Shown here: piece by piece, positions 18,939-51,347 of the stretch | How the letters are laid out: each line of letters starts with the position of its first letter | Numbering within the stretch: position 1 is the first letter of the stretch | Assembly: GCA_000004695.1 (NCBI GenBank) | Contig: CM000150.2 | Span: 2,880,001 to 2,944,000 of the forward strand | Direction: 5' to 3' | From: Dictyostelium discoideum | Taxonomy: Eukaryota | DNA length: 64,000 bases | Program-made: the position numbers and the translations under genes | Notes under the pieces: generated by a model | Database searches by the model: none | The model's input: only the letters and a program-made list of their open reading frames with translations | Told to the model about the DNA's origin: nothing

Positions 18939-19652
18939 TTAATAAAATTCTTCTTTGATAACTAAATCATTTGACCATTGTTGAACGGCCCATTGATTCT
19001 TTTTGATACGATGTCCTCCATATGTGAAATCCATATACATTTCATATGCTGTATTATTACCATCAACGAGTAATTTTAATAATTTTGCTTCATGAATTGT
19101 TGCATTATTTACAAAAGATTCTTCAGCTTTACGATTTGCAGATTTACCAACACGATTAGTTGAATCACCTTTTTCATACATAATTACATCTTGATGATAA
19201 TATTTATCGAATACTTCTAATATTTTATTATCTTGAATACCTTTAATAATTGATTCTAAATTTGATTTGATATTAGTTGATGGTTCTGGTGTTGATGGTG
19301 TTTTAATTTCAACGAATTCTTCTTTAATAATTAAACCATTTGACCATTGTTGGAATGCCCATTGACTCTTTTTGATACGATGTTCGCCATATGTGAAATC
19401 CATAAACATTTCATATGCTGTATTATCACCATCTACGATTGTTTTTAATAATTTTGCTTCATGAATTGTTGCATTATTTACAAAAGATTCTTCAGCTTTA
19501 CGATTTGCAGATTTACCAACACGATTAGTTGAATCACCATTTTCATACATTACAATTTCATCATGATAATATTTATCGAATACTTCTAATATTTTATTGG
19601 TTTGAATCCCTTTAATAACTGCTTCTAAATTTAATTTATTATTTGATGACAT
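18939..19652 (-). CDS. SnoaL/NTF2-like tandem two-domain protein, 237 aa. Copy 1 of 3.
   Basis: Intronless ORF. The protein is an internal duplication of a ~110-aa unit (…ILEVFDKYYHDEIVMYENGDSTNRVGKSANRKAEESFVNNATIHEAKLLK…DGDNTAYEM…FTYGEHRIKKSQWAFQQWSNGLIIKEEF). The pattern fits the SnoaL_2/NTF2-like fold. Confidence 0.6.
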   Translation of the reverse strand: MSSNNKLNLEAVIKGIQTNKILEVFDKYYHDEIVMYENGDSTNRVGKSANRKAEESFVNNATIHEAKLLKTIVDGDNTAYEMFMDFTYGEHRIKKSQWAFQQWSNGLIIKEEFVEIKTPSTPEPSTNIKSNLESIIKGIQDNKILEVFDKYYHQDVIMYEKGDSTNRVGKSANRKAEESFVNNATIHEAKLLKLLVDGNNTAYEMYMDFTYGGHRIKKNQWAVQQWSNDLVIKEEFY

Positions 19653-20454: not shown

Positions 20455-21168
20455 TTAATAAAATTCTTCTTTGATAACTAAATCATTTGACCATTGTTGA
20501 ACGGCCCATTGGTTCTTTTTGACACGATGTTCACCATATGTGAAATCCATATACATTTCATATGCTGTATTATTACCATCAACGAGTAATTTTAATAATT
20601 TTGCTTCATGAATTGTTGCATTATTTACAAAAGATTCTTCAGCTTTACGATTTGCAGCTTTACCAACACGATTTGTTGAATCACCTTTTTCATACATAAT
20701 TATATCTTGATGATAATATTTATCGAATACTTCTAATATTTTATTATCTTGAATACCTTTAATAATTGATTCTAAATTTGATTTGATATTAGTTGATGGT
20801 TCTGGTGTTGATGGTGTTTTAATTTCAACGAATTCTTCTTTAATAATTAAACCATTTGACCATTGTTGGAATGCCCATTGACTCTTTTTGATACGATGTT
20901 CGCCATATGTGAAATCCATATACATTTCATATGCTGTATTATCACCATCAATGATTGTTTTTAATAATTTTGCTTCATGAATTGTTGCATTGTTTACAAA
21001 AGATTCTTCAGCTTTACGATTTGCAGATTTACCGACACGATTAGTTGAATCACCATTTTCATACATTACAATTTCATCATGATAATATTTATCGAATACT
21101 TCTAATATTTTATTGGTTTGGATACCTTTAATAACTGCTTCTAAATTTGCTCTATTATTTGATGACAT
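20455..21168 (-). CDS. SnoaL/NTF2-like tandem two-domain protein. Copy 2 of 3.
   Basis: It is about 95% identical to the copies at 18939 and 22023. The flanking intergenic DNA is also repeated. Confidence 0.6.
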   Translation of the reverse strand: MSSNNRANLEAVIKGIQTNKILEVFDKYYHDEIVMYENGDSTNRVGKSANRKAEESFVNNATIHEAKLLKTIIDGDNTAYEMYMDFTYGEHRIKKSQWAFQQWSNGLIIKEEFVEIKTPSTPEPSTNIKSNLESIIKGIQDNKILEVFDKYYHQDIIMYEKGDSTNRVGKAANRKAEESFVNNATIHEAKLLKLLVDGNNTAYEMYMDFTYGEHRVKKNQWAVQQWSNDLVIKEEFY

Positions 21169-22022: not shown

Positions 22023-22736
22023 TTAATAAAATTCTTCTTTGATAACTAAATCATTTGACCATTGTTGAACGGCCCATTGATTCTTTTTGACACGATGTTC
22101 TCCATATGTGAAATCCATATACATTTCATATGCTGTATTATTACCATCAACGAGTAATTTTAATAATTTTGCTTCATGAATTGTTGCATTATTTACAAAA
22201 GATTCTTCAGCTTTACGATTTGCAGCTTTACCAACACGATTTGTTGAATCACCTTTTTCATACATAATTATATCTTGATGATAGTATTTATCGAATATTT
22301 CTAATATTTTATTATCTTGAATACCTTTAATAATTGATTCTAAATTTGATTTGATATTAGTTGATGGTTCTGGTGTTGATGGTGTTTTAATTTCAACGAA
22401 TTCTTCTTTAATAATTAAACCATTTGACCATTGTTGGAATGCCCATTGACTCTTTTTGATACGATGTTCGCCATATGTGAAATCCATAAACATTTCATAT
22501 GCTGTATTATCACCATCTACGATTGTTTTTAATAATTTTGCTTCATGAATTGTTGCATTGTTTACAAAAGATTCTTCAGCTTTACGATTTGCAGATTTAC
22601 CGACACGATTAGTTGAATCACCATTTTCGTACATTACAATTTCATCATGATAATATTTATCAAATACTTCTAATATTTTATTGGTTTGAATACCTTTAAT
22701 AACTGCTTCTAAATTTAATTTATTATTTGATGACAT
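22023..22736 (-). CDS. SnoaL/NTF2-like tandem two-domain protein. Copy 3 of 3.
   Basis: The N-terminal half matches copy 1 (FMDF). The C-terminal half matches copy 2 (IIMYEKGDSTNRVGKAANRK, GEHRVKKNQ). Confidence 0.6.
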   Translation of the reverse strand: MSSNNKLNLEAVIKGIQTNKILEVFDKYYHDEIVMYENGDSTNRVGKSANRKAEESFVNNATIHEAKLLKTIVDGDNTAYEMFMDFTYGEHRIKKSQWAFQQWSNGLIIKEEFVEIKTPSTPEPSTNIKSNLESIIKGIQDNKILEIFDKYYHQDIIMYEKGDSTNRVGKAANRKAEESFVNNATIHEAKLLKLLVDGNNTAYEMYMDFTYGEHRVKKNQWAVQQWSNDLVIKEEFY

Positions 22737-33780: not shown

Positions 33781-36700
33781 ATGATAAATAAAATTTCTCG
33801 TTTTAAAATATTATTATTGTTTATTTTTATTATTTCATTGACATGTGCTCAAGATGGTAAGTTTTTAATTATTTTCTTTTTTATAAAACATTTGCAAATA
33901 TTGACTTTTTTTTTGAAAAAAAAAAAAAAAAAAAAAAAATTTTAGAGGAATTAATATCAACACCTGAAGGGTATTACGATTTAAAACGGTTTAAAAGATT
34001 TCAACACTATAAAAATATCCAACCCAATGAAGAAGCAGGATATACAGATTTATATTATCCAGATGTTTGTAAAAATGCTATAAGGAATAGAGATGGAGCT
34101 CCAACATTTAATCAGAGAAGCTTTCCAGGTTATACAGGAGTATTCGACACTTTACTAATAACAAAGGGTATTTATCATTGTAAAATTCATAAAAATACAT
34201 CATTTTGAAAAACTTAACATTAACATTTCACCATTATCATTTCATTCAATCAAAGGTACCAATATGACATTGGATTCAACCGGTTTCCTTACTGGTCTGG
34301 GTATCTGGTCACTCTTGACTTTATGTGTTGAAGGAAATTTAACGGTACTTTATAATCCAGATGAATTTTCTTTCGTACCTGTTCATAGGTTAGTTATACT
34401 ACCAGGTGGAACTATAACATCCCATGCAAATTCATTTCTATTCTGGGATACTTACCAAGTTGATGAGAATTTTCAAGAAGAATTAAACAAAAGAGTAAAG
34501 ATTGATCCTTTTAATTTTTTCCCTGGTCTACTAGTCTTGGGAGGAAATTTAAATTTATTTGGTAATAGTCAATTGACTTATACTGCTAAACGATTGAACG
34601 ATACTACATTGGAACTATCAACTCCATTTTTAAATATGAAATTTCTATGGAATAAATATATAATTACAATCTTTACAGAATCAATACCACAAGGTGATGA
34701 TTGTCTTTTTAATATGGATTCAGATAAAAGAACTTTTTACTTAATTAAAACCAACTATGGTACTTGCAATCCATTACGGGAAACAGATAAACTCATGAAA
34801 GTAGTAATCTCATACAACCGATATGAGGATAATTACTCAAGCTATATATCTCTTTTTTCAGATTATTATGGTTTCGAACCAAATGAAGCTTCTATTTTTA
34901 TAACAGGTGATTCAAATGTCTATATTGAAAATTATCTTATTAAAAATTTAGGCAAAACAAAAAATAATGCATACAGTGATACAAAATTAATATTTTCACC
35001 AAATAATACAAGTGAAGTTATAGGGTTTATAAATGGTACCAATCAAAGATTTAGAAGTTCTTTATATATAGAGTTTTCAAATAATGTTATCATTAAAAAT
35101 TGTGTAATTATAGAATCTTCTTCAGAAACAAGATCACCGTTAGTATTTTTTGGTTCAAACGTATATTTATCAGATAATTTAATTTCAAGTAAATCTGGTT
35201 CAAGTTTAATAGCACAATATGGAACTGAAAATATTCAATCTATAAATAATTTTTATTTTCAAAAAGGTGTTTCACATCAAACTGCCTCTCAAATATTAAA
35301 TCCAATTAATATGGATTTTGGAAATGAAGGAAATGGCATTTATTCAGTATCACCAAATCTTTTATCAAGTGATGATTTTTTTATTGGTCAAAATTATTCA
35401 ATTACTTTTAACTTTATTGCCAATAGGTCAAAAATTACTGGTTTTGATCAAGATTGTTATGCACCATGTTTTAGTGATTCAATCAATTTTTCAAATAAAA
35501 TTCAGTATCCTGTAGATTTTAAAATTTTTAATCCAAAGTTTTTACCAACAAATAATACCAATAGCGATTGGTATATTTTAAATATAAATGATAATGGAAA
35601 TCAACCAGGTACCTATTATACAGTAAAAAATTTAACAACTTTAGATCCCGTACAGTTTTCATTGGATAATAGCGCTTTATCCTTTTTAGGTCTAGAAGCA
35701 AGTGAAAATTTTAAAATGAATGGTAATGCCAAAAGATTGGATATTGTTAATTCAATTATCAGTTCAAAAGCTTTAACCAACCAACAACAAATAATTTCAA
35801 AAGTTTCATCATCAGCTATTAGCTTTAAAAATTCTTATATATACAGTAAATTAGGTCAACAAATTACACCTATAGATAATCAGATTTATGGATCATTAAT
35901 TACACCATTTTATTATAATGATTCAGATATTTTAAATCAAGTTAAAATTTTATCAATTTTTCCCAATGTCCCTTTTCAAATTGTATCAGGTTCTATATTA
36001 AATGTTAGCATAAACCTTCAAATTATTTCAACGGCTGATATTTCATGCACTTTCTCTTCAGATAATTCTACTTTTAGTACAACAATTTTGGTTAACCCAT
36101 CAGACGGAAGTTGTGTTTTACCACTTGTTTTTGAAAAAGAAGGTTATTTTAATTTAAAAGTCACATTAAAGATTTCAACATCAAAGGATTATTATTATAT
36201 AGTTGATTTTCCAAAGATTACAGTATATAATGAATATTTATTTTATTCAGGATGGGTAATGATTGATTCAAGCACAGATGAATTTCTATTTGAAGGTAAA
36301 ATATTTAAATCAGGTTGCCAACAACAGGTATTAGGTAATTGTACAATATCAACAAATTCAAAGTTTATAAATGGCTTGCCAAATGTAACAGAAACAGATG
36401 AACTTAATAGATTATTTTCAAGTGGTATAACATCAATCAATCCATATGAACCTGTGACAATTACAATACCAATTGATAAAGAATCAAAAAAGAATCAAAT
36501 CCAATTATTTTTTACTCACCAACCAATTGATATAGAATATAGTCTATTATCAATATATGTAGAAAATCAACCAATATTCCTTTTAGAACAATTACAAAGT
36601 GGTTTAGGTTCAACATTTAAAAATTTAACATTTAATTATGAAAATTCAAAATCACTAGAAATAATCAACATTTCTTTCACAACAAGAGGTGATATCTATT

Positions 36701-37675
36701 TAACTTCAATGGCGGTTTATTCATCAGCCATCCCAATAATCGTTACACCAACACCAACATCAACAACATCAACACCAACACCAACATCAACAACAACATC
36801 AACACCAATTCCGACAACAACACCTACAACAACACCAAAAACATCAAAAACAACCTCCAAAAACAAATTAAAAATTGCTTTACCAATTTGCCTTTTTGCT
36901 CTTTTGGTTGCTGTTGGAGTTTTAATATGTTTTATTTTCAGAAAAAAAAAACAAAAGAAACAAAAATTAGATAATAATATGGAGGATGGAAGTGAGATGT
37001 CTTCAATTAAAATTAAAAAAGAAAATTATAATTCTTTTAACAAGTTTAAAGAGTCAACAGTATTTAAAAACGATGATTTTAAAAATTATTCCAATCCAAC
37101 CGAAACAACAATTTATAGCACTTCCGATTCACTTTTAAACTTTGTTGGCTCTGACTTTTTAAATTACTCTGACCCAAACATCCCCTTATCCTTTAGTAAA
37201 AATATTTTAGAATTTGGATTAAAAGGTTCAAAATGCGATATCAATACCTTCCTTTCCGATTCTTTACGAATAACAAATAACTCTAATATTATATTATGTA
37301 TTTGTACAGTTCTTCCAAGAAATGACTCTGGTGAAGTAAGAATTTTTTGTTTTTTTATTATTATTATAATGAATTTAATTAACTAATCAATAATGAATTT
37401 TTTTTTCAGGTAAATGTTAGTCCAGATTCTTTTGAATTAGATCCAAATCAATCAAGAGAGATAGAATTTTCTTTAAAGTTAAATTGCACAACAAGAGTAG
37501 GTTGAATTTTTATAATTGAATTATTATAATTTAGTTAATATATATACTAACTGCACATCTATTTATATCCTAGTTTTTTGAAAGATTTGCTATTGAGGCT
37601 AGACATACTCACAGTTTCAAGTCAATTCACACTCACCTTTTCATTCATGTTGAATCTAAGATTTCCTCTAAAGTA

Positions 37676-37713
<38 letters not shown>

Positions 37714-38690
37714 GATTTTAACTTAACTTTTCTTTAGTTGGATATAAAAGAGATTGAAGTTAAAGAATTGATTTCACAAAATAATTTATCAACTGTTAAT
37801 ATAGCAAATTATAGAGGTTTACAAGTTGTTTTGAGAAAGATTAAAACTCATAGCGCAAATTACACCAAAACTTACTCTCAAGCAATCAAAAAATTCTACA
37901 CAGAAATGGATATACTCTCAAAGTTAAAAAACAAAAATATTGTTTCATTTATTGGTTGCACTCACGACTCTTCTCACCTTTGGATTGTTACTGAATATGC
38001 ACCATTGGGATCTCTTAGTTCTCTTATCCATCAAAAGAAAGAAAAACTTTCATTAATTCAAAAAGTCAAGTAAGTAAAAAAAAAAAAAACAATAATATTA
38101 TAATTTAGTTCTTTTTTCTAATATTATTAATAGGTTAATGTTAGATACAGCAAAGGGGTGTGAATTTCTACACTCAAATGATATTACGAATTGTAATATA
38201 AAATCAAATAATTTATTACTCTTTTCAACAATGGAAAAAGATGATGTTTGTGTAAAAATTTCAGATTTTGGTATAAAAAGTAATTATTATTATTTTTTAA
38301 ACAATTGTTATTTTTTATACAATGATTATTTCTAACTTTTTACAAAAAAAAAAAAATAAATAAATAAAAATAGAATTTGAAGTACAAAACCAAAATGAAA
38401 AAGAAATTTTTAAAGATGAAAAAGATCAAAAGCTAATTGATGTTTATGAATTTGGAATTACATTCTATGAAACAATGCTTGAAGAAACTCCAGAAAACCT
38501 ATCTAATTTAATATTGGAAGGTGAGAGACCAACTCTTGATTTGGAAAAATTAGATGCAGACATTAGAAACATAATTGAAAGATGCTGGAACCAAAACAAA
38601 AGGTCAACATTTTCAGAGATTAGTATTTCACTAAAAGAAAAATATACAAAATTGTTGGAGAAAAATAATGAATTAATACAAGAGAATTAA
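33781..38690 (+). CDS. Receptor-like protein A: signal peptide, parallel beta-helix ectodomain, transmembrane helix, degenerate cytoplasmic pseudokinase. Eight exons.
   Basis: Exons are 33781-33856 ([25 protein letters not shown]), 33946-34167, 34256-37335, 37410-37496, 37574-37672, 37738-38069, 38134-38279 and 38374-38690. The ectodomain has PbH1-like repeats (…[18 protein letters not shown]…[21 protein letters not shown]…[12 protein letters not shown]…). A T/P-rich stalk leads to the TM helix [23 protein letters not shown]. The kinase-like region keeps subdomain II-V remnants (VVLRKIK…[20 protein letters not shown]…[13 protein letters not shown]), the DFG (ISDFG) and [11 protein letters not shown]. 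It lacks the Gly loop and the HRD catalytic loop ([12 protein letters not shown] instead). Confidence 0.7.
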
Positions 38691-38769
38691 TTTAAAAACT
38701 AACAATAAAAACAAGATAATTTATTATTATCTATGAAATTAGAAATATTTTTTTTTTTTAAATTATTGT

Positions 38770-38945
38770 TAATATTATTTGGATTACTACAAATGATATT
38801 AAAATAGAGATAGTAGATTTAGAGTTAATAGTAGGTGAAGCTGCAATTAAGTGTTAAACACTATTATTATTTGTTGTAGTTGTTGTCGATTTACTTGATT
38901 TTACAACTGGTTGGAACTCCAGATGTTGTACCGTTTGTAATGGAA
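38770..38945 (-). pseudogene. Truncated 3' fragment of a GPI-anchored surface-protein gene, paralogous to 42116-42300.
   Basis: 38760-38940 aligns almost base-for-base with 42110-42300, including the reverse-strand region that encodes the hydrophobic tail ...ISILISFVVIQIILTII* and the S/T-rich stalk. It then diverges, and no upstream ORF follows. Confidence 0.55.
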
Positions 38946-39136
38946 CAAGGAAAATAAAAAATAAGATATTAACAAATGTTTTTATTGAAGATAATTTTGG
39001 TAAAAACCAATTAAAATTTTTTTTTTCTTTTTTTCAATCTCTTAGAAATATGCCTTATTTTTTTTTTTTTTTTTGGATGGCATTCGTTTTTTTTTTTTTG
39101 GAAGACATTTTTTTTTTTTTTCTTATATTCAACAAA

Positions 39137-41830
39137 ATGAAATTAGGACAAAGGATATTTATTTTGATATGCTTAGTTATCAACTCTTTCTCTAATTGTA
39201 AGTCAACAATTAATTAAATATTATTCATTTTTTTATTAAAAAAAAAAAAAAGACTAAAAAAAAAAAAAAAAAAGGCAGTCTTGTGGTTTCACCAAATGGT
39301 TATTATAACATTTATCGAGAAAATAATTTTGGGAATATTTTAAATTTAAAGCCAACAGCAGAAAACAAATTACAAGATTCATATTATCCAGGTGTTTGTA
39401 GCAATGCAGGAAAAAATAAAGATGGTGTGACTAGTTTTTTAATATCCTCTTTCTCTATTTTTTTTTATAAATTACATCAACGTTATTGTTACAAAAGGTA
39501 TGTAAAATTTTATTTTAAATAGAATCATATTATGAAATATAAAATATTAACCAAATGCAATTAATTAACCAATTAGGTTCACATATGGTATTGGGAGATT
39601 TGGAATATTCTAAAATGAGTAATGTTAGAACTTTATTGAATATAGTTTGTGTTGAAGGCTCATTATTATTTTCAACACAAAGTGTTTTATATATGAGTGT
39701 CTTGGTAATGTTACCTGGTGGTAGTTTTGAATGTTTAGATTGCACAATTCGTTTTCGTGAACTACATCCAGCAAGCTCTCAGATCGATCCATTTGGTTTT
39801 TTCCCTGGTGTACTTGCTTTAGGTGGCTCGTTATCTCTTATTGGGAAGCAAAAAACTACATATTCTGCGACCAATATTGGTGGAAATATATTAGAGGTTC
39901 CAGATCTTTCAACATTAGATAGTTTCAATGGTTACAGTTTATCAATATTTAGTGAATCATTTCCTTTGGGAAAATCTTCAACCTTTTCCCATTATTTAAA
40001 TCGAATAAGTGTATTAGATTTGGTTATTCCGAAAACAGATAAAAATATAAGAGTCTTCTTTAATCCAAATTTTTCATTTTTCAACTCAGACAAAATCAGA
40101 TACCGCTTCAATTCATATCACAGGAAATACCAATGTATATAGAAAATTTTTACATCAATTCTTTTGGAAAGACTTCAAATGATCAATATAGCGATACAGA
40201 ATTGGTATTCTCACCTGATGATCCAAATTTAATTACAGAGTTTATAAATGGTAACAAAGATTTAGAAATTCATTATATATAGAGCATTCAAATAATGTTA
40301 CTATAAAAAATAGCGTTATACTTGAAACAAAAGAAACAAGATCACCATTAGTAATTTTTGGTTCAAATGTAAATATATCAGGTAATATAATATCAAGTAA
40401 TTCTGGTTCAAGTATTACAGGATTTGATAAAGATTGCTATTCACCATGCTATAATGATTCGATAAGAGTTTCAAGTAAAGTTCAACATTTATTAGTTCAT
40501 CAAATTACTCTGAGTTTTCTTTTTAGAATCAGCGAAACAGGTAGTAAACAAAGTTCAATTTATAAAATAAAAAATTCAAATTTAAGTTATCCAATTTCAG
40601 TATTATTAGAAAACAACGCATTTATATTAGATAATGTTTATGGTTTTGGTGATTTTAGTAATAATGGTATGATTAAAAGATTTGATATAATAAACTCAAC
40701 ATTAGATCCTTCTGCATCATCATCAATAAGTTTAAACAATTTTTCAAAAGCAATTTGTATTCAAAACTCATTTATGGATTTTAAATCATTTCAAAAACAA
40801 AACAATCAATTATTACACCTTACCTATACTATTTCGAAAATACAATGAATCTTATAAAAGTATCAAAAATGTATCCAAATGTAAACCATCAAATTTTAGC
40901 AGGTACAGTACTAAATATGGGTATTGAAATTATAATTATAGCACCATTATTTGGGAAAATGGATTGCATATTTGAAGATGAAAGTAGTGTTCAAACAATA
41001 CCATTTGATAAATCAAGTAATTCATGTGTTTTACCATACACATTTAAAAATGAAGGTTCATTTAATGTACGAGTTACATTATCACTAAATAACTCTGGAG
41101 ATAGTGTATTTCAAGTATATTTTCCAATGGTTACAGTATTTAATATATTCATTTTATTCAGGATGGGCAATGATTGATTCAAATATAGAAAAAGAAATAA
41201 TAATAGATGGTAATATATTTAAAAAAGGTTGTCAACAACAGGTATTAGGTAATTGTACAATATCAACAAATTCAAAGTTAATAACAGGTTTACCAAATGT
41301 GACAGAATCAGATGAACTTAATAGATTATTTTCAAGTGGTATAACATCTATCAACCCATATGAACATGTAACAATAACAATACCAATTGATAAAGAATCA
41401 AAAAAGAATCAAATCCAATTATTTTTCACACTAACCAATTGATATAGAATCTAGTCTATTATCAATATATGTAGAAAATCAACCAATATTCCTTTTAGAA
41501 CCATTACAAAGTAATTTAGATTCAACATTTAAAAACTTAACATTTCATTATGAAAATTTAAAATCTCAAGAAATAATCAACATATCTTTCACAACAAGAG
41601 GTGATATCTATTTAACTTCAATGGCGGTTTATTCATCAGCCATACCAATAATCGTTACACCAACACCAAAAACATCAAAAACTACCTCCAAAAACAAATT
41701 AAAAATCGCTTTACCGATTTGCCTTTTTGCTCTTTTGGTTGCTGTTGGAGTTTTAATATGTTTTATTTTAAGAAAAAAAAAAAACAAAAATTAACTAATA
41801 TTATGGAAGATGGAAGTGAGATGTCTTCAA
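39137..41830 (+). pseudogene. Receptor-like kinase pseudogene B: multiple frameshifts, in-frame stops, internal deletions and loss of the kinase exons.
   Basis: The signal exon MKLGQRIFILICLVINSFSN and the next exon (VSPNGYYNIYRENNFGNILNLKP…) match gene D. The track splits the body into broken ORFs at 39555-40142, 40845-41177 and 41104-41442, with the stop 'tatatatag' at ~40270. About 230 bp are deleted relative to D between '…SGSS' and 'ITGFDKDCYSPCYND'. The C-terminal stalk and TM (…[15 protein letters not shown]…[23 protein letters not shown]) instead match gene A. Only a short kinase 3' remnant (~41990-42050, …NELTQEN*) survives. Confidence 0.7.
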
Positions 41831-42115
41831 TTAAAATTAGTGTTTCACCTTTATCCAACTTGGGATAAAAAATGTTTTTTTTTTTTTTTTTTGATTACTA
41901 CCTTTTCAGTCCTTATTTTTTTTTGCGATCCAAAAAAAAAATTAAAAAATAAAATTCGGATTACAAATTAAAAAGGAATTTGTTTATCTTAAAGAAAAAT
42001 ATATAAAACTGTTTGGGAAAAGTAATGAATTAACACAAGAGAATTATTTTAAAACTAACAATAAAAACAAGATAATTTATTATTATCTATGAAATTAGAA
42101 ATATTTTTTTTTTTT

Positions 42116-45100
42116 TTAAATTATTGTTAATATTATTTGGATTACTACAAATGATATTAAAATAGAGATAGTGGATTTAGAGTTAATAATAGGTGAAGCT
42201 GCGCTTAAGTGTTCACCACTATTATTATTTGTTGTAGTTGTTGTCGAAGAGTCTGTTGATTTACTTGATGTTTCAACTGGTGCGCCAGTTGTTGTACCGC
42301 TTGTAATTGGAATTGAATAAGGAATTGTATTATTTGAAAAAACTTCAATACCGCACATTGGTATTGAGTACTTGAGATTATCAGATGCCCACTCAATCAT
42401 GAGTGTAACATCAGTTGAACCACTATTCCAATAGAATGGCCCAAATTTTTGATATTTTTGATAAGGTGAAGAAGGTCTTGAGTATGGATCTTGATATTTG
42501 CCATTAATCTTAATTGTGAAAATGGGTAGTGAGTTGACGATGTTGGCTCCAGTGTAATCTGCATTATAAGAGTAGATGAAAAACTTGTATTCTGCATTTG
42601 CTGGTAAAGTTAAATTTACTGAACTTTTAATTCCTAATGTAACATCATTTGATAAATAAGATGTTAACATTGATACTTCATCAGTTGCGCTTCTGATAGT
42701 TCCAGTTGTAGATTCAGTTACCGTTGATGGAATTGGTGATACTTTACTGTATTTACCAGTTACCTTACATATTCCACTAATCCAACCACATTTAGTCCAT
42801 TGGTTGCCTAAAATTGATAGTGCTTTGGAAGATGAACTAAAATCTGGAGTTAAATCTATACCAAGGTAAAACAATTGAACACCAGAATCAACTATATAGG
42901 TTTGAGCATAATATGGTCCAACAATAGATGGATCATTTGGAGCATATAATAGATTGGATGAAACAATAACTGTATAAGGTCCATTAGCTTTTGGGAAATT
43001 GGCAACCTTGGAAATAGGAGAAGCACTTGAAGGGTAATCTATTGATTGAATTACTTCGTTTACAATATATTCTATATTTTGATTTGAACCTAAAAGGTAA
43101 TCGACGTTTGGTTTAAATGATAATAAAAGTTGATTTGAAGTTATTGAATTTACCATTGGGTTAAAATTATATAATGGATATAAACCAAGGACCCCTTCAA
43201 ATATATCTAATTTTGTACCATTTACATTAGAAAGGTATAGCTGTGTGGTATATTTCTTTAAGAATAAAGATGAACTAGAATAATGAGAGAAGAGAGAGTT
43301 TTTAATTGATAAATAACCACACGAAAATGTTTCAGAAAAGAAAACATAATTTCCTTTGGCAATGGAATTAACAATTGATATCGCATTGTATTTGCCATTT
43401 AGAGTGTTTGGAGCATTAGTAAATACTTTCTCATTTGAAGATAGAGAGTTTGCAATATATGGAGAATCATAAAAGATTTCAATGTTTGCTTGGTTTCCGG
43501 TTGAACCAAGAGTTAATGATGGTTGCTGTCGAATATACCAACCAAATTTTATATTAATTTTTAGTGGGGGTTGAGTTCCAATTGGATATCTAACACGTAC
43601 TTCAGTTTCACCTGCAAAGAAATTACTCAAAAAAACAACATTGTTCCAAACATTATTAGTTTTGTAATCAGCAGTGTTATCTTGAGTTAATCCAGAGTGT
43701 ATACCTATCAGTTTATCTGATGCTAAACCCAATGTTGAATATCTACTTTGAATTGGGATTACATGAATTGCACCTCCTTTGAATTTACCTTCAAATGCAT
43801 TTCCTTCATATGTAGAGTAGGGTGATGATGTTATTATACCAACATTTATATAATCTATGTCTGGATAGGTTCTATATGATGAAACTATGCTGGTATCCGA
43901 GTATAAAGAAATGAACCCATTATAGCTAATATCAAATTGCTCTGTTCCATATAATAATGAAATACCACTGATACCTTTTCTCAATGCAAATGCATTACCA
44001 GATATTGTACCAAATGAACGTTTAGCACCAATAAAAGCTCTTGGGATTTCACTTTCTCTTAAAGTATCAATGTAGTCATAATCCATGAACATATTATTCT
44101 TAATATTTACTGCTTCTTTATTATGTAATAAAGTTATTGGATATCTATCAGGTATATTTTTTCCATATTTAAGAACATTATAGTTTGAATTTAATATATT
44201 ATCATCGAGAACATTGCTTGTTGTATGTCCAATATCATAAAAAACACTGTTTTGAATATTAACAATCGATCCAAGAGTAAAAGTCATTGAACTATTATAA
44301 AACCCTTTGATAAATACATTTTTAGACCAAGGTCTCATTACAATATAACCACTTCCACCAAATATTTCTCCTATTATTTCACTTGGGGATGCTGCGATAG
44401 CACTAGTATAATATTGATCCATTGAATAATTAATATTGTAATTTGGATCATAACTTCCACTCATTCTAAATAAAGGTAATCCTGGACTTGAATAAGAAAA
44501 AGGAGTACGGAGGAATGAACCTCCATAAGAACCAGATTTTGATGTGTTCCTTCCTGCCCATATTGACTCAGTGTTAAAACCAATAATGTTAACTGTACCG
44601 CCCAAGGAGATAAAAGGAGATGTTTGAAGAGGATCCCAAGATGGGAAATTCCAATATTCAAAAGCGGGTAAAAATATTGTGTGATTAAAACTTGAAGATG
44701 GTTTTGATTCAAATACACCAGTTGGGAATATAATTGTTTTGGAGACTGTGTAATATGTATTAGCATTTGGATCAAGAACCAATTTTCCTTTAATAATAAT
44801 TGTATAAAGCCAACTGACTCTTCCATAAAACGTAACTGTTACTCCTTCTGGAATAACCAAAACATTTTTTAACAATAATAAACTTCCTGAAGGGTTTTCG
44901 TTAATGTTTATTGGTGGTGTAAATAAATCAGTGGTAAGAAAGTTTGTGTCACTATATATTGTGCAACTTGATTTGAAAGTGTATTTTACTGTATTTGGAT
45001 TTGACTCCAAGTCTGGATAAAAATCACCTTTGTAGTTTGGGTTTTCTGGATAAAAATTAATCTTGAAATGTGGCTGCCCATTAATATTTACACGTGGAGA

Positions 45101-45271: not shown

Positions 45272-45959
45272 TGTAAAGAATAAAATTAATTTCTTTAAAG
45301 CGAAATCTGAAAATCAGATATTGTAAATTGTCAAAGGAAATTAAATTAGTTATTTCTTTTCATTTAAATAATATAATTAAGGGGTATAGACTATATGTTT
45401 GAAAGGCATCTTTAAAATTAAAGGAAAAAATGAAGAATTAGTATATCATTTTAAATAACTGTTCAATATTTAAATGAAAAAAATATATTTGAATTTTGGT
45501 TTTTTAATTTTTAGTTTTTAAATTTTTTTTTATTTTAAAAACAACTTTTTTTAAAATAAAAAATTGCAATTATTAACCACCTATAGCAGAAATGAATATT
45601 TCCAGTTTTTAAACGTTTTTTTTTTTATTTTTTTTTTTTTTATTATATTTTTCTACATGATTTTGTGTATTTTTATGTTTTTTTTTTTTTATTTAAATTT
45701 TGAAAATTTAATTTTCACTTTTTTTTTTTTTTTTTTTTTTTATCTTGAAATTTTTTTATTTTGTTTTAAGATCAAAAAAAAAAAAAAAAAAAAAAAAATG
45801 TTAATTCAATGATTATAAACATCATTTCTGAAATTTAATTTATTTCTTTCCTATGAAATAATAATTAAACACCACACCCCAACCATTAATTTTTTTATTT
45901 TTATTTTTATTTTTTTTTTCAAAATCTTCGCATTTTTGATTTTTTTTTTCTGAAATCTT

Positions 45960-45994
<35 letters not shown>

Positions 45995-46041
45995 CACATA
46001 CGACATTTTTTTTTTTTTTTTCTTATATATTGCTCCACAAG

Positions 46042-49000
46042 ATGAAATTAGAACAAAGGATATTTTTTTTAATATGCCTAGTTATCAACTCTTTCTCTAA
46101 TTGTAAGTCTACAATAAATTTATTTAATATTTTTCACATTTTTACTAACCTTTTAAAATAAAAAATAAAAAAATAAAAAATAAAATAATAAAATAATAAA
46201 AAAAAGGTAGTCTTTTGGTTGCTCCAGATGGTTATTATAACATTTACCGAGAAAATAAAATTGAAAATATTTTAAATTTAAAACCAAATGGTAACAAATC
46301 ACAAGATTCATATTATCCAGATGTGTGTAGTAAAGCGGTAAAAAATAAAGAAGGTGTAAAAAGTTTTATCTTATCTTCATTCCCTCTTTCAACTAAAGAG
46401 TATGCTAACGTTATTGTAACAAAGGGTATGTAGATTTTATTTTTATTTTTTATAGTAAATTATAGTATATTTATAAATATTAACAATAAGCAATTAATTC
46501 CTAGGTTCACATATGACATTGGGTGATGGAGAATATCATCAAATATTTAATATCAATAGATTTTTGAATATAGTTTGTGTTGAGGGTTCACTTGTATTTA
46601 GTACAAAAGATGTTGTATATATGAGTGCGTTGGTAATATTACCTGGTGGTAATTTTGAATGTATAGATTGCACCATCAAATTTCGAGATCTATATCCAAC
46701 CAACTCATTAATTGACCCATTTGGTTTTTTACCTGGAATTATTACTTTGGGAGGTTCATTATCTCTTTTAGGAAAGCAAAAAACTGTGTATAGTGCAGTT
46801 TTAATAGATGAAAATATATTAGAGGTTCAGGATATTTCATCACTAGATATTTTCAATGGTTATAGTTTATTTATTTTTAGCGAATCATTTCCTTTGGGAA
46901 AGGCATCAACTTTTACTTTTAATTCAAATCAAATAAAAGTTTTGGAAATCAAAATACCAAAAACAGATAAAAGCATTAGAGTATTTTTTTATTCAAGATT
47001 TTCTACTTTCTCAACTTCAACTACTGCTTCAATTCATATCACAGGTAACTCAAATGTGCATATCGAAAACTTTTATATAGACTCTTTTGGGAGGACAACA
47101 AACGATCAATATAGCGATACAGAATTGATTTTCTCTCAAGATGATCCAAATTTAATTACTGGGTTTATAAATGGTAGCAATCAAAGATTTAGAAGTTCTT
47201 TATATATAGAGCATTCAAATAATGTTACCATAAAAAATAGTGTTATACTTGAAAATAGAGGAGAAACAAGATCACCATTAATATTCTTTGGTTCAAATGT
47301 AAATATATCAGGTAATATAATATCAAGTAAATCTGGCTCAAGTTTAATAGCGCAATATGGAACTGAAAATATTCAATCAACAAATAATTATTATTCATTA
47401 TCTTTACCACTTTTAAAATCATTAAATTCAACTCTTGATAGTATGGATTATGGAAATGAAGGAAATGGTATTTTTTCGATATCGCCAAAAATAAATTCTA
47501 TTAATGATATATTCAATGGGCAAATAATAGCAATCAATCATATAATATTATCAGATAGATCAAGTATTACAGGATTTGATAAAGATTGCTATTCACCATG
47601 CTATAATGATTCGATAAGAGTTTCAAGTAAAGTTCAACATTCAGTGGAATTTAAAATAACAGGATCAACATTTATTAGTTCATCAAATTACTCTGAAAGT
47701 AGTTTTCTTTTTAGAATCAGCGAAACAGGTAGTAAACAAAGTTCATTTTATAAAATAATAAATTCAAATTTAAGTTATCCAATTTCAGTATTGTTAGAAA
47801 ACAATGCATTTATATTAGATAATGTTTATGGTTTTGGTAATTTTACAATTAATGGTCTTATTAAAAGATTGGATATAATAAACTCAACATTAGATCCTTC
47901 TGTAACATCATCAATAAGTTTAAGCAATTTTTCAAAAGCAATTAGTATTCAAAATTCATTTATGGATTATAGATCATTTCAAAAACAAAACAATCAAATC
48001 TATGGATCAATTATTACACCTTACCTCTACTATTTCGAAAATACAATGAATCTTATAAAAGTATCAAAAATGTATCCAAATGTAAACCATCAAATTTTAG
48101 CAGGTACAGTACTAAATATGGGTATTGAAATTATAATTATAGCACCATTATTTGGGAAAATGGATTGCATATTTGAAGATGAAAGTGGTATTCAAACAAT
48201 ACCATTTAATAAATCAAGTAATTCATGTGTTTTACCATACTTATTTAAAAATGAAGGCTCATTTAATGTACGAGTTACATTATCACTAACGAAATCTTTA
48301 GATAATATTATATTTCAAGTATATTTTCCAATGGTTACAGTATTTAATATATATTCATTTTATTCAGGATGGGCAATGATTGATTCAAATATAGAAAAAG
48401 AAATAATAATAGATGGTAATATATTTAAAAAAGGTTGTCAACAACAGGTATTAGGTAATTGTACAATATCAACAAATTCAAAGTTAATAACAGGTTTACC
48501 AAGTGTAACAGAATCAGACAAACTTAATAGACTATTTTCAAGTGGTATAACATCTATCAACCCATATGAACCTGTAACAATAACAATACCAATTGATAAA
48601 GAATCAAAAAAGAATCAAATCCAATTATTTTTCACTCACCAACCAATTGATATAGAAACCAGTCTATTATCAATATATGTAGAGAATCAACCAATATTCC
48701 TTTTAGAACCATTACAAAGTAATTTAGATTCAACATTTAAAAATTTAACATTTCATTATGAAAATTCAAAATCATTAGAAAAAATCAAAATTACATTTAT
48801 AACAAGAGGCGATATTTATTTAACATCTACAGCGATTTATTCATCAACTAACCAACCTATATATAACGAAGTTATTGGTATAAATGAACAATTAAATATA
48901 TTAGCAATTGTACTACCAATAACGATTTCATTGTTTGCAGCGGCATCAATATTGGCTGGTTATTTAGTAATTAAAAAATATAAAAAACCAAACATGTATT

Positions 49001-50199
49001 ATAATAGAAATACCAATGGAAATATCGGAATGAAGGTTTTCTCAACAAAATTTAAAAGAAGACCCAAAAAGGTAATACCACTTTCAATCCCATTAAGTAC
49101 AAATAGAATTACAAAGAAATCATTACAATCTTTAGATTCAATGGCTGAAAACCCTGTGATATTACTTTCCATTCCAGAATTGGAGAAAGCCAATGAACCA
49201 GAATTTAATCCTGAAAAAACTTTCTTACAAGAATCAGAATTATTAGATTTACCAACACCAAAGGTAGAACCAGAAGAGCCAAGAATTAATATTGTTCCCC
49301 TCCCTCGTTTTCCAACCGTATATAAAAAAGAAGATAACGATAAATTATTAAAAGAATTGAATATAACTGGTCCTATCACCTCTGAAAATATTGAATCATT
49401 CTTTGAAGTTGATGTTGGTTTGCCATCTTTAATAATAAAGAATGAATCTGAAATCATTCTACAAGAAATTGATTATATTGAAACTGGTGAAATTCAAGAA
49501 ATGGAAGGTAGCTTTTTGGAAGATAAATCAACTGATACAACCGTTATAGTAACAAAAAGTGATGGTTTACCTAAATTTTTTCAAACCAAAGTCTTTTCCA
49601 AACGATTTAATGATATATCCAAATTTGATAATGATTTCTTTGATCTAAAGGAATACATAGTTGAACATCAAGAAGAATCTTTTGAAATACCTTTTATGAC
49701 CTCGGAAGATGAAGTAGATGAAACCAAAATTAATATAATAGACTTTTTACTCAGTCCCAAATCTAATAAAGTTGCACTAAATATGTATTTAAAATCATTT
49801 CAAAATAGAAACCATAAACTTTGTTATGGAAAGTATGGTTCAAATAAAAATTCTATTCTTGTTATTGAAGGCACATCTTATTATTATGATTGTACAGATG
49901 TTAGGTTACCAATATCAACACCTCGTAGTAATCTTAATTTTGGAATAACAGATGGTAATAAATGTATAGTTGATAGAAAATATAGAGAAAGGTTACAATA
50001 TATAAATGTTTATAGTGAACCATTTAGAATTTATACTCTTTTTCCAGATAGTAATGATAATGTAACAATTACAACTTCAGAATGTTGTAAAGAAATAGAC
50101 CCATTTGGTTCATTAGATGTAGATATATTTGTAACTTTAAAAACAACAACCAAAGTAAGTATTTTAAAAAAAAAAAAAAAAAAAAAAGAATTATAAACT

Positions 50200-50230
<31 letters not shown>

Positions 50231-51347
50231 CATAAAAAAAACATAATAATAGTTTAATGAAAAAGTTACAATTCGTTATGAAACTGATGATAAAGAATTA
50301 GCATTTTCAACATTTGTTTATTTAAATTTAGAGAGTCAAGTATCATCAAAAATTGATTTTGATGAAATAGTTCTCGAAAAATATTTATCTGAAGGTTCAT
50401 TTGGAGTTGTATATAGTGCTATTTGGAGATCATCATCAGTTGCGGTCAAATTATTCAAACATCATTATTCTAAAGATGAAATTGATAAAGAAACATCAAT
50501 TTTATCAAAAATAAAACATCCAAATATAGTTTCATTCATTGGAAGTTTAAATTTTTTAAATACATATGGTATTGTAATTGATTATCATCCAAGAGGTTCT
50601 TTAAATTATTATACTCGTAATCAAAATATTAAACTATCAATGGTACAAAATATTAGGTATGTAATAATTAAAATATTATTATTTATTATTATTATATTAT
50701 TTATTAATTTTTTTTTTTTTTTTAGGATTTCATTGGATATTTCAAGAGCTTGTTCATTTCTTCATAAAAATGGTATTATTCATCGAGATTTAAAACCAGA
50801 TAATGTTTTAATTGTTTCATTTGATCCAGATTCTTCAATTTGCGCAAAGATATCAGATTTTGGTACTTGCAGAGGTATGTTTTTTTTTTTTTTTTTTTTT
50901 GATATATTCAAATTTTTTTTTTTTTTTTTGAATTCAACTAACTATTTTTGTTTTAAATTAAAAAAAGAAATTAATGGAAAGCATGAATTAAACTCAAAAG
51001 CTGGAACAACACGTTATATGAGTCCAGAAATTTTAGAAGGTCTTCCATATACATATTCTACAGATGTTTATTCTTTTGCAATCCTTTTCTTTGAATTACT
51101 TTCCGGAAGAGTACCATTTAGAGAAATTCCAAAAAGAGAAATTCCAAGATTTGTACGTTTAGGAACAAGACCTCGTTTAGATCAAGATGTATTTGCCGAT
51201 AATGATATATCATTAATTTTATTAGCTTGTTGGAATCCAAATCCTCGTGGTAGACCAACATTTGATACTTTAATAGATTTATTAGAAAAATTATTAAAAA
51301 AATATAAAGAAAGAGCAAAAAGAAATAAAAAAAATCAAAATCAATAA
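46042..51347 (+). CDS. Receptor-like kinase D: signal peptide, beta-helix ectodomain, transmembrane helix, intact cytoplasmic Ser/Thr (TKL-like) kinase. Six exons.
   Basis: Exons are 46042-46102 (MKLEQRIFFLICLVINSFSN), 46207-46425, 46505-50154, 50253-50656, 50726-50874 and 50968-51347. The TM helix is ILAIVLPITISLFAAASILAGYLVI. The kinase is intact: GSFGVVYSA (Gly loop), VAVKLF (beta-3 Lys), HRDLKPDN, DFG, GTTRYMSPE and DVYSFAILFFELL. The ectodomain is ~60-70% identical to gene A. Confidence 0.75.

Follow-up and report, generated by a model that had tools for sequence, protein, structure and literature searches.

A 64,000-nucleotide (nt) stretch of the Dictyostelium discoideum genome (contig CM000150.2, positions 2,880,001 to 2,944,000; below called the window) contains two neighboring genes of the GDT receptor kinase family, gdt6 and gdt4, which a preliminary description of this DNA had listed as genes A and D. 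Our analysis makes it very probable that gdt6 encodes a receptor-like pseudokinase that is catalytically dead yet functional and selectively maintained. The kinase-fold domain of gdt6 has lost four elements, namely the Gly-rich loop, the lysine of strand β3, the catalytic aspartate, and the P+1 loop with the APE motif. Judged from the sequences, gdt6 appears to be a maintained pseudokinase under purifying selection rather than a decaying gene, because its orthologues are intact and carry the same lesions, the ratio of nonsynonymous to synonymous substitution rates (dN/dS) is low, and the former catalytic cleft is conserved.

GDT is a Dictyostelium-specific TKL family with six receptor kinases sharing an ectodomain (Goldberg et al., 2006; PMC1420674). 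Two of the six AX4 receptor kinases, gdt1 and gdt6, were predicted in that study to be inactive. Its Table S2 lists VVLR, NCNIKSNN, and DFG for Gdt6, which is predicted inactive with the remark 'R instead of K72', 'kd, a, VAVK, HRDLKPDN, DFG' for Gdt4, and 'i, multiple insults' with ALLK, QKTLRARN, and DLT for Gdt1. The contrast between an inactive gdt6 and an active gdt4 is therefore already known since 2006, as documented by this table and by the UniProt names of the two proteins. What is added here is the conservation of gdt6 in orthologues, the dN/dS analysis, the deletion in the activation segment, the ASH/MSP-like domain, and the placement of gdt6 in a tree of kinase domains.

Gene Models of gdt6 and gdt4

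The guanine-plus-cytosine content of the window is ~22%, which is typical for Dictyostelium, and its genes are spliced, with short GT..AG introns. The gdt6 gene (DDB_G0270544) extends from 33781 to 38690 on the plus strand, on which all features of gdt6 and gdt4 given below are located. It consists of eight exons (33781-33856, 33946-34167, 34256-37335, 37410-37496, 37574-37672, 37738-38069, 38134-38279, and 38374-38690) separated by introns of 64-94 nt, all of the GT..AG type. The spliced translation comprises 1452 amino acids (aa) without stops, and our hand-built model agreed letter for letter with the database protein (UniProt Q55DV2, "Probable inactive serine/threonine-protein kinase gdt6"). 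The gdt4 gene (DDB_G0270550) is located 7 kb downstream of gdt6 at 46042-51347 and has six exons (46042-46102, 46207-46425, 46505-50154, 50253-50656, 50726-50874, and 50968-51347) coding for 1620 aa. Here, too, the hand-built model was identical to the database protein (UniProt Q55DU7, 'Probable serine/threonine-protein kinase gdt4'), which is predicted to be an active, ordinary member of the GDT family.

An alternative donor in gdt6 (GTATAA at 38271), the use of which would break the DFG motif, was rejected because the 146-nt exon defined by the annotated donor is kept in all four species compared (see below) and matches the database protein.

Catalytic Motifs of gdt6 and gdt4

The motifs of the two kinase domains, which share 32% identity, were assigned by pairwise alignment, a family alignment, and coordinate mapping, and a second, independent alignment with Arabidopsis CTR1 (PDB) gave the same motif correspondences for gdt6. 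The gdt4 protein possesses a Gly-rich loop (LSEGSFGVV, 50385-50411), VAVK in strand β3 (50439-50450), the catalytic loop IIHRDLKPDN (50775-50804), DFG (50856-50864), and the P+1 loop/APE sequence GTTRYMSPE (51003-51029). The preliminary description had predicted gdt4 to be active on the basis of these motifs, and all catalytic motifs are indeed present; its account of the Gly-rich loop requires the correction that the first glycine of GxGxxG is a serine (SEGSFG).

In gdt6, the former Gly-rich loop reads ISQNNLSTV (37771-37797), which aligns with LSEGSFGVV of gdt4 and IGAGSFGTV of CTR1 and contains no glycine at all. In strand β3 (VVLRK, 37825-37839), the VAIK lysine, corresponding to K72 of PKA, is changed to arginine. 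HRD is replaced by NCN in the former catalytic loop (38183-38212), the catalytic aspartate (D166) thus being an asparagine, and the loop retains the lysine and asparagine corresponding to K168 and N171 of PKA. The αC glutamate, the DFG motif (38264-38272), and the whole C-lobe, including the landmarks DVYEFG (38439-38456) and ERCW (38577-38588), are likewise retained. Compared with active relatives, the remnant of the activation segment (38276-38441, spanning the intron 38280-38373) lacks 13 residues, among them the GTxxYMSPE P+1 loop/APE. According to the K72/D166/D184 criterion of kinome surveys, gdt6 is a pseudokinase, with K72 changed to arginine, D166 changed to asparagine, and D184 kept.

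Most of the gdt6 motif pattern had been anticipated from the first inspection of the DNA. The absence of a Gly-rich loop, the replacement of the HRD aspartate, and the retention of DFG and of the C-lobe (DVYEFG…CW) were borne out by the motif mapping, but the lesion list, although correct as far as it went, had missed the K72 exchange and the 13-residue deletion of the P+1 loop/APE. It had also been pointed out that other exon boundaries might restore HRD or GxGxxG in gdt6. None of the motifs GxGxxG, HRD, HxD[LIVM]K, DxKxxN, [AS]PE, and VAxK is encoded in any plus-strand frame of 37300-38700; therefore, different exon boundaries cannot rescue them and the pseudokinase call stands.

The alignment of both domains to a kinase hidden Markov model (HMM), which had been suggested as a check, separated the two proteins clearly. 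The Pfam profile PK_Tyr_Ser-Thr matched gdt4 over its full length (E = 1e-49, profile positions 2-256), whereas gdt6 was matched only at profile positions 33-255 (E = 9.5e-28), leaving the start of the N-lobe unmatched. The score for PF07714 was 169.6 bits for gdt4 and 97.6 bits for gdt6, with a cutoff of 23.1, which places gdt6 within the protein kinase fold.

Domain Architecture of gdt6

The gdt6 product is a type I single-pass membrane protein with the architecture given for the six GDT receptor kinases in PMC1420674, that is, a signal peptide, a GDT ectodomain alignable to that of gdt4 along its whole length, one transmembrane helix (36868-36939), and a C-terminal kinase-fold domain. Between the last two lies a cytoplasmic ASH/MSP (PapD-like) domain with an immunoglobulin β-sandwich (37162-37672, aa 1069-1188), which adjoins the kinase domain N-terminally. 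Its coding sequence comprises the end of exon 3 and exons 4 and 5, interrupted by introns at 37336-37409 and 37497-37573, and a domain of this type also precedes the kinase domain in gdt4 and in every family member aligned. The pseudokinase domain (37738-38690, aa 1189-1452) is encoded by exons 6-8, which are separated by introns at 38070-38133 and 38280-38373.

This domain assignment modifies two earlier statements. The interval 37410-38690 had been taken as kinase in its entirety; it is kinase from 37738 onward, but its first two exons (37410-37496 and 37574-37672) form the second half of the ASH/MSP-like β-sandwich. The remark that the kinase region of gdt6 is split into more exons than that of gdt4 is true for the interval as a whole, but the kinase core itself is split by two introns, at positions matching those of gdt4. 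The two extra introns of gdt6 are located within the ASH-like domain (37336-37409) and at the junction of the ASH-like and kinase domains (37673-37737).

An AlphaFold2 model of gdt6 aa 1069-1452, with a mean predicted local distance difference test score (pLDDT) of 82, showed an all-β domain followed by a kinase fold. The sole disordered stretch of the model (pLDDT <50, model residues 279-293) was the shortened activation segment. In a Foldseek search with the kinase part, the best matches were Roco4 and BRAF.

Conservation of gdt6 in Other Species

Exhaustive HMMER and word-indexed searches recovered orthologues of gdt6 in D. cf. discoideum (P0004, 90% identity), D. citrinum (P0154, 75% identity), and D. 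firmibasis (P0155, 64% identity). A word-indexed search with a 384-aa cytoplasmic fragment gave no homologue at E ≤ 1e-10, but the full-length query and HMMER found the family, and we take this null result as a candidate-selection limit of the search method and not as absence of the family. The syntenic locus has the same order in all four species, with APH and Arf genes upstream, followed by gdt6, one minus-strand gene, gdt4, and an abhydrolase gene. When the proteins were mapped back onto their loci, the eight-exon structure of gdt6 was found to be common to the four species, with intact open reading frames (ORFs) and with the same exon sizes in the interval 37410-38690 (87, 99, 332, 146, and 317-323 nt). 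In a direct comparison of D. cf. discoideum with D. discoideum gdt6, all splice sites were conserved and every insertion or deletion in the coding sequence was a multiple of three.

Two features of the D. cf. discoideum gene deserve separate mention. The gdt6 stop codon (38688-38690 of the window) is replaced by a leucine codon (L001 14811-14813), and its product ends two residues later (…QENLI). The annotated first exon of this gene consists of the ATG only; since the signal-peptide exon can be aligned further upstream, this is probably an artefact of annotation.

The catalytic lesions are shared by all four orthologues. Each lacks glycine in the former Gly-rich loop, has arginine at the position of the β3 lysine, and shows the 13-residue deletion of the activation segment as a gap in the alignment. 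The catalytic loop follows the pattern (T/I)(N/R)CNIK(S/P)NN, with (N/R)CN in place of HRD, and DFG is intact throughout.

Approximate dN/dS ratios of the pseudokinase domain were calculated pairwise by the method of Nei and Gojobori (NG86). For AX4, the ratio was 0.38 with D. cf. discoideum (p = 0.007 vs. neutrality), 0.245 with D. citrinum (p = 2.6e-9), and 0.35 with D. firmibasis (p = 1e-6); for D. citrinum versus D. firmibasis, it was 0.27 (p = 6e-10). The ratios do not exceed those of the ectodomain (0.35-0.41) and are comparable to those of the active kinase domain of gdt4 (0.34-0.61). Invariant positions among the four orthologues amounted to 79% from the catalytic loop to DFG and 80% from αC to the hinge, compared to 53% in the ectodomain and 39% in the remnant of the activation segment. 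No part of gdt6 is better conserved than the former catalytic cleft.

A search for orthologues had been proposed as a means to distinguish a functional pseudokinase from a decaying one, and its outcome, lesions conserved in four species together with a dN/dS of 0.25-0.38, argues for the former. The marks of a pseudogene, namely frameshifts, premature stops, lost splice sites, and a dN/dS near 1, were not found in gdt6.

Place of gdt6 in the GDT Family and Relation to gdt4

In a neighbor-joining tree of the kinase domains, the gdt6 orthologues grouped together in 100/100 bootstraps and were sister to the gdt8-like genes in 90/100. The clade of gdt6 and the gdt8-like genes joined a third group, named here after its member P0006, in 100/100 bootstraps. 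A grouping of gdt6 with gdt4 was obtained in 0/100. The preliminary description had treated gdt6 and gdt4 as a paralogue pair; with this tree and a kinase domain identity of only 32%, the idea that they are each other's closest paralogues had to be given up. The Gly-rich loop is missing in all three lineages, and its loss therefore predates the lesions specific to gdt6. The gdt8-like genes keep VAVKK, HGD, and DFG, and the P0006 group keeps VVIK, HRD, and DFG, with HCD in one isolate.

The P0006 group comprises P0006, P0156, P0157, P0159, and P0160, which stem from D. citrinum, D. cf. discoideum, a D. discoideum isolate, and D. dimigraforme. No AX4 protein of this group was obtained in the homologue searches, and its motifs match none of the AX4 Gdt entries compared from the tables of PMC1420674. 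In AX4, the group may be absent or may have escaped annotation.

Two observations link gdt6 with gdt4. One is their proximity, since in four species gdt6 is followed by a single intervening gene and then by gdt4. The other is a tract in the membrane-proximal ectodomain (gdt6 aa ~772-920), in which gdt6 and gdt4 are 70-100% identical within each species, compared to ~40% elsewhere. On the DNA level, this tract (36112-36726 in gdt6 and 48226-48846 in gdt4) shows 84.6% identity overall. In its core (gdt6 aa ~819-869), gdt6 and gdt4 are 98-100% identical in D. discoideum and D. cf. discoideum and 70% identical in D. firmibasis, and the gdt6 orthologues are 76% identical to one another. Because in D. 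discoideum the identity between the paralogues (98%) exceeds that between the orthologues (76%), gene conversion is indicated. Proximity and the gene conversion tract are the sole links between gdt6 and gdt4; they are circumstantial and expected for neighboring paralogues.

Proposed Function of gdt6 and Alternative Explanations

We propose that gdt6 would signal without phosphotransfer, either as a module for docking or scaffolding or in an allosteric partnership with an active kinase, with the ASH/MSP-like domain and the pseudokinase domain forming a module that would act by binding. We infer this non-catalytic role from the analogy to gdt1, predicted to be inactive but genetically active, and to pseudokinases in general. 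In the passages on predicted-inactive kinases in PMC1420674, these are considered likely to include scaffolding or regulatory proteins. Gdt1 and Gdt2 are cited in PMC8262924 as negative regulators of the growth-differentiation transition, and the same source describes a reduced polyphosphate sensitivity of gdt4- cells.

Some points weigh against a maintained, catalytically dead protein. The retention of DFG, K168, and N171 makes binding of nucleotide or metal possible. Some pseudokinases scored by motifs keep weak or atypical activity. The dN/dS values are approximate, NG86 being crude at ~78% A+T and dS amounting to 0.4-0.7 in the more distant pairs. In the literature retrieved with the gene name and the DDB_G identifiers, gdt6 occurs only in kinome tables, and neither biochemical data nor a mutant phenotype was found.

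A residual or atypical activity through a rearranged active site would be in line with the retained DFG motif, the lysine and asparagine of the catalytic loop, and the αC glutamate, with the cleft region being the most conserved part of gdt6, and with the presence of a lysine directly after the substituted arginine (VVLRK). We nevertheless consider it quite improbable, as four lesions independent of one another occur together (loss of the Gly-rich loop, K72R, D166N, and loss of the P+1 loop/APE) and a lysine beside the arginine in a β-strand would presumably point away from the cleft. Furthermore, among PDB sequences the highest score belongs to a CTR1 variant with HRN at the D166 position. 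An exchange of aspartate for asparagine at the catalytic base is a standard kinase-dead mutation, which also speaks against residual activity of gdt6. The opposite possibility, that gdt6 is decaying or that only its ectodomain matters, as in a decoy receptor whose cytoplasmic tail is drifting, could explain why its kinase HMM score is far below that of gdt4 (97.6 vs. 169.6 bits), and the neighboring family member B (39054-42299) is in fact a frameshifted pseudogene without a kinase domain. This explanation is highly improbable in view of the intact ORF and common exon structure in four species, a pseudokinase dN/dS (0.25-0.38) as low as or below that of the ectodomain, and cleft and αC regions that are more conserved than the ectodomain. 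In its strict form, as a decaying pseudogene, it was discarded on account of the intact orthologues, the shared exon structure, and the low dN/dS.

The preliminary description had likened gdt6 and gdt4 to the pair HER3/HER2. A dedicated pair of this kind, in which gdt6 would heterodimerize with gdt4 and activate it allosterically, fits with the receptor-like GDT architecture common to both proteins, with the gene order kept in four species, and with the shared membrane-proximal tract bearing the signature of gene conversion. We regard it as unlikely, because the kinase domains are only 32% identical, gdt6 is sister to the gdt8-like genes with 0/100 bootstraps for a grouping with gdt4, adjacency and gene conversion are expected of tandem paralogues even when these are not functionally coupled, and no evidence of any kind for a gdt6-gdt4 interaction was found. 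The HER3/HER2 analogy for gdt6 and gdt4 is accordingly a hypothesis and not a finding. A further scenario to which we assign little probability combines a stepwise loss of catalysis in a GDT subclade, with gdt6 as the end point, and an obligate role of gdt6 as non-catalytic co-receptor of an active GDT kinase. The clade of gdt6, the gdt8-like genes, and the third group would first have come to lack the Gly-rich loop, with the lysine, HRD (HGD in the gdt8-like genes), and DFG being kept; gdt6 would then have lost K72, D166, and the P+1 loop, and the cleft would have stayed strongly conserved. The partner might be gdt4, with gene conversion keeping the membrane-proximal ectodomain modules identical. 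If true, this would represent an independently evolved HER3-like system in the Amoebozoa.

With a functional, catalytically dead gdt6 as the favored explanation, the catalogue of inactive and active GDT kinases remains unchanged. The value of the present results lies in the indication that the dead kinase domain is old and selectively maintained, with a highly conserved cleft. They make none of the long-standing questions newly testable, and their contribution is a modest support for a function of gdt6. Like gdt1, gdt6 is a reasonable candidate for non-catalytic receptor signaling at the switch from growth to development in a genetically tractable amoeba.

Neighboring Sequences in the Window

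Gene B (39054-42299, plus strand; ORF fragments from 39137) is a disrupted GDT copy of chimeric composition. The 5′ part has 77-91% DNA identity to the gdt4 region 45957-48855 and the 3′ part 88-92% DNA identity to gdt6 (36825-37015 and 38631-38933), and nothing of the ASH-like and kinase region is present. P0164, a counterpart of 957 aa without a kinase domain from a different D. discoideum isolate, can be aligned with gene B only by assuming repeated frame changes and an internal deletion. At the D. citrinum and D. firmibasis loci, no gene was found at the position of B. The 3′ end of gdt6 and its downstream flank (38631-38933) are duplicated with 88% identity at 41988-42299, downstream of B. 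This copy overlaps the 3′ end of gene C, and a fragment resembling the C tail thus appears just after gdt6.

Gene C (42116-45010, minus strand), located between the GDT genes, is a long ORF of 964 aa with a hydrophobic C-terminus. A minus-strand gene of ~1000 aa occupies this position in all four species. The idea that C is a GDT paralogue was dropped, as BLASTP against gdt6 gave E = 0.30 and no similarity. Elsewhere in the window, three tandem ORFs of 237 aa are present on the minus strand (18939-19652, 20455-21168, and 22023-22736), which are 97-98% identical to each other. Each of them resembles an internal duplication of a unit of ~115 aa.

Comparison with Known Systems

A close counterpart of gdt6 is Gdt1 of D. 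discoideum (gdtA), which belongs to the same family, has the same architecture, and is also predicted to be inactive. Its lesions are different and more extensive and include the loss of DFG, and gdt6, unlike Gdt1, has no reported phenotype. With respect to solved structures, the kinase domain of Arabidopsis CTR1 (PDB 3p86 and 3ppz) is the closest sequence to gdt6 (E = 7e-20), and D. discoideum Roco4 (4f0f and related entries) and BRAF are the closest folds. All three belong, like gdt6, to the TKL group. CTR1 and Roco4 differ from gdt6 in being active kinases or engineered mutants and in lacking both the receptor architecture and the ASH/MSP-like domain.

Among receptor systems of other organisms, HER3 (ErbB3) with HER2, JAK JH2, and the plant receptor pseudokinase BIR2 are receptor-like, possess a kinase fold without the catalytic aspartate, and coexist with active paralogues. 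HER3 resembles gdt6 in all three respects. However, HER3 keeps its Gly-rich loop, the β3 lysine, and ATP binding, whereas gdt6 has lost the Gly-rich loop, the β3 lysine, and the P+1 loop/APE, and the two families are unrelated beyond the kinase fold. The partnership of HER3 with HER2 has been demonstrated biochemically, whereas gdt4 is not even the closest paralogue of gdt6.

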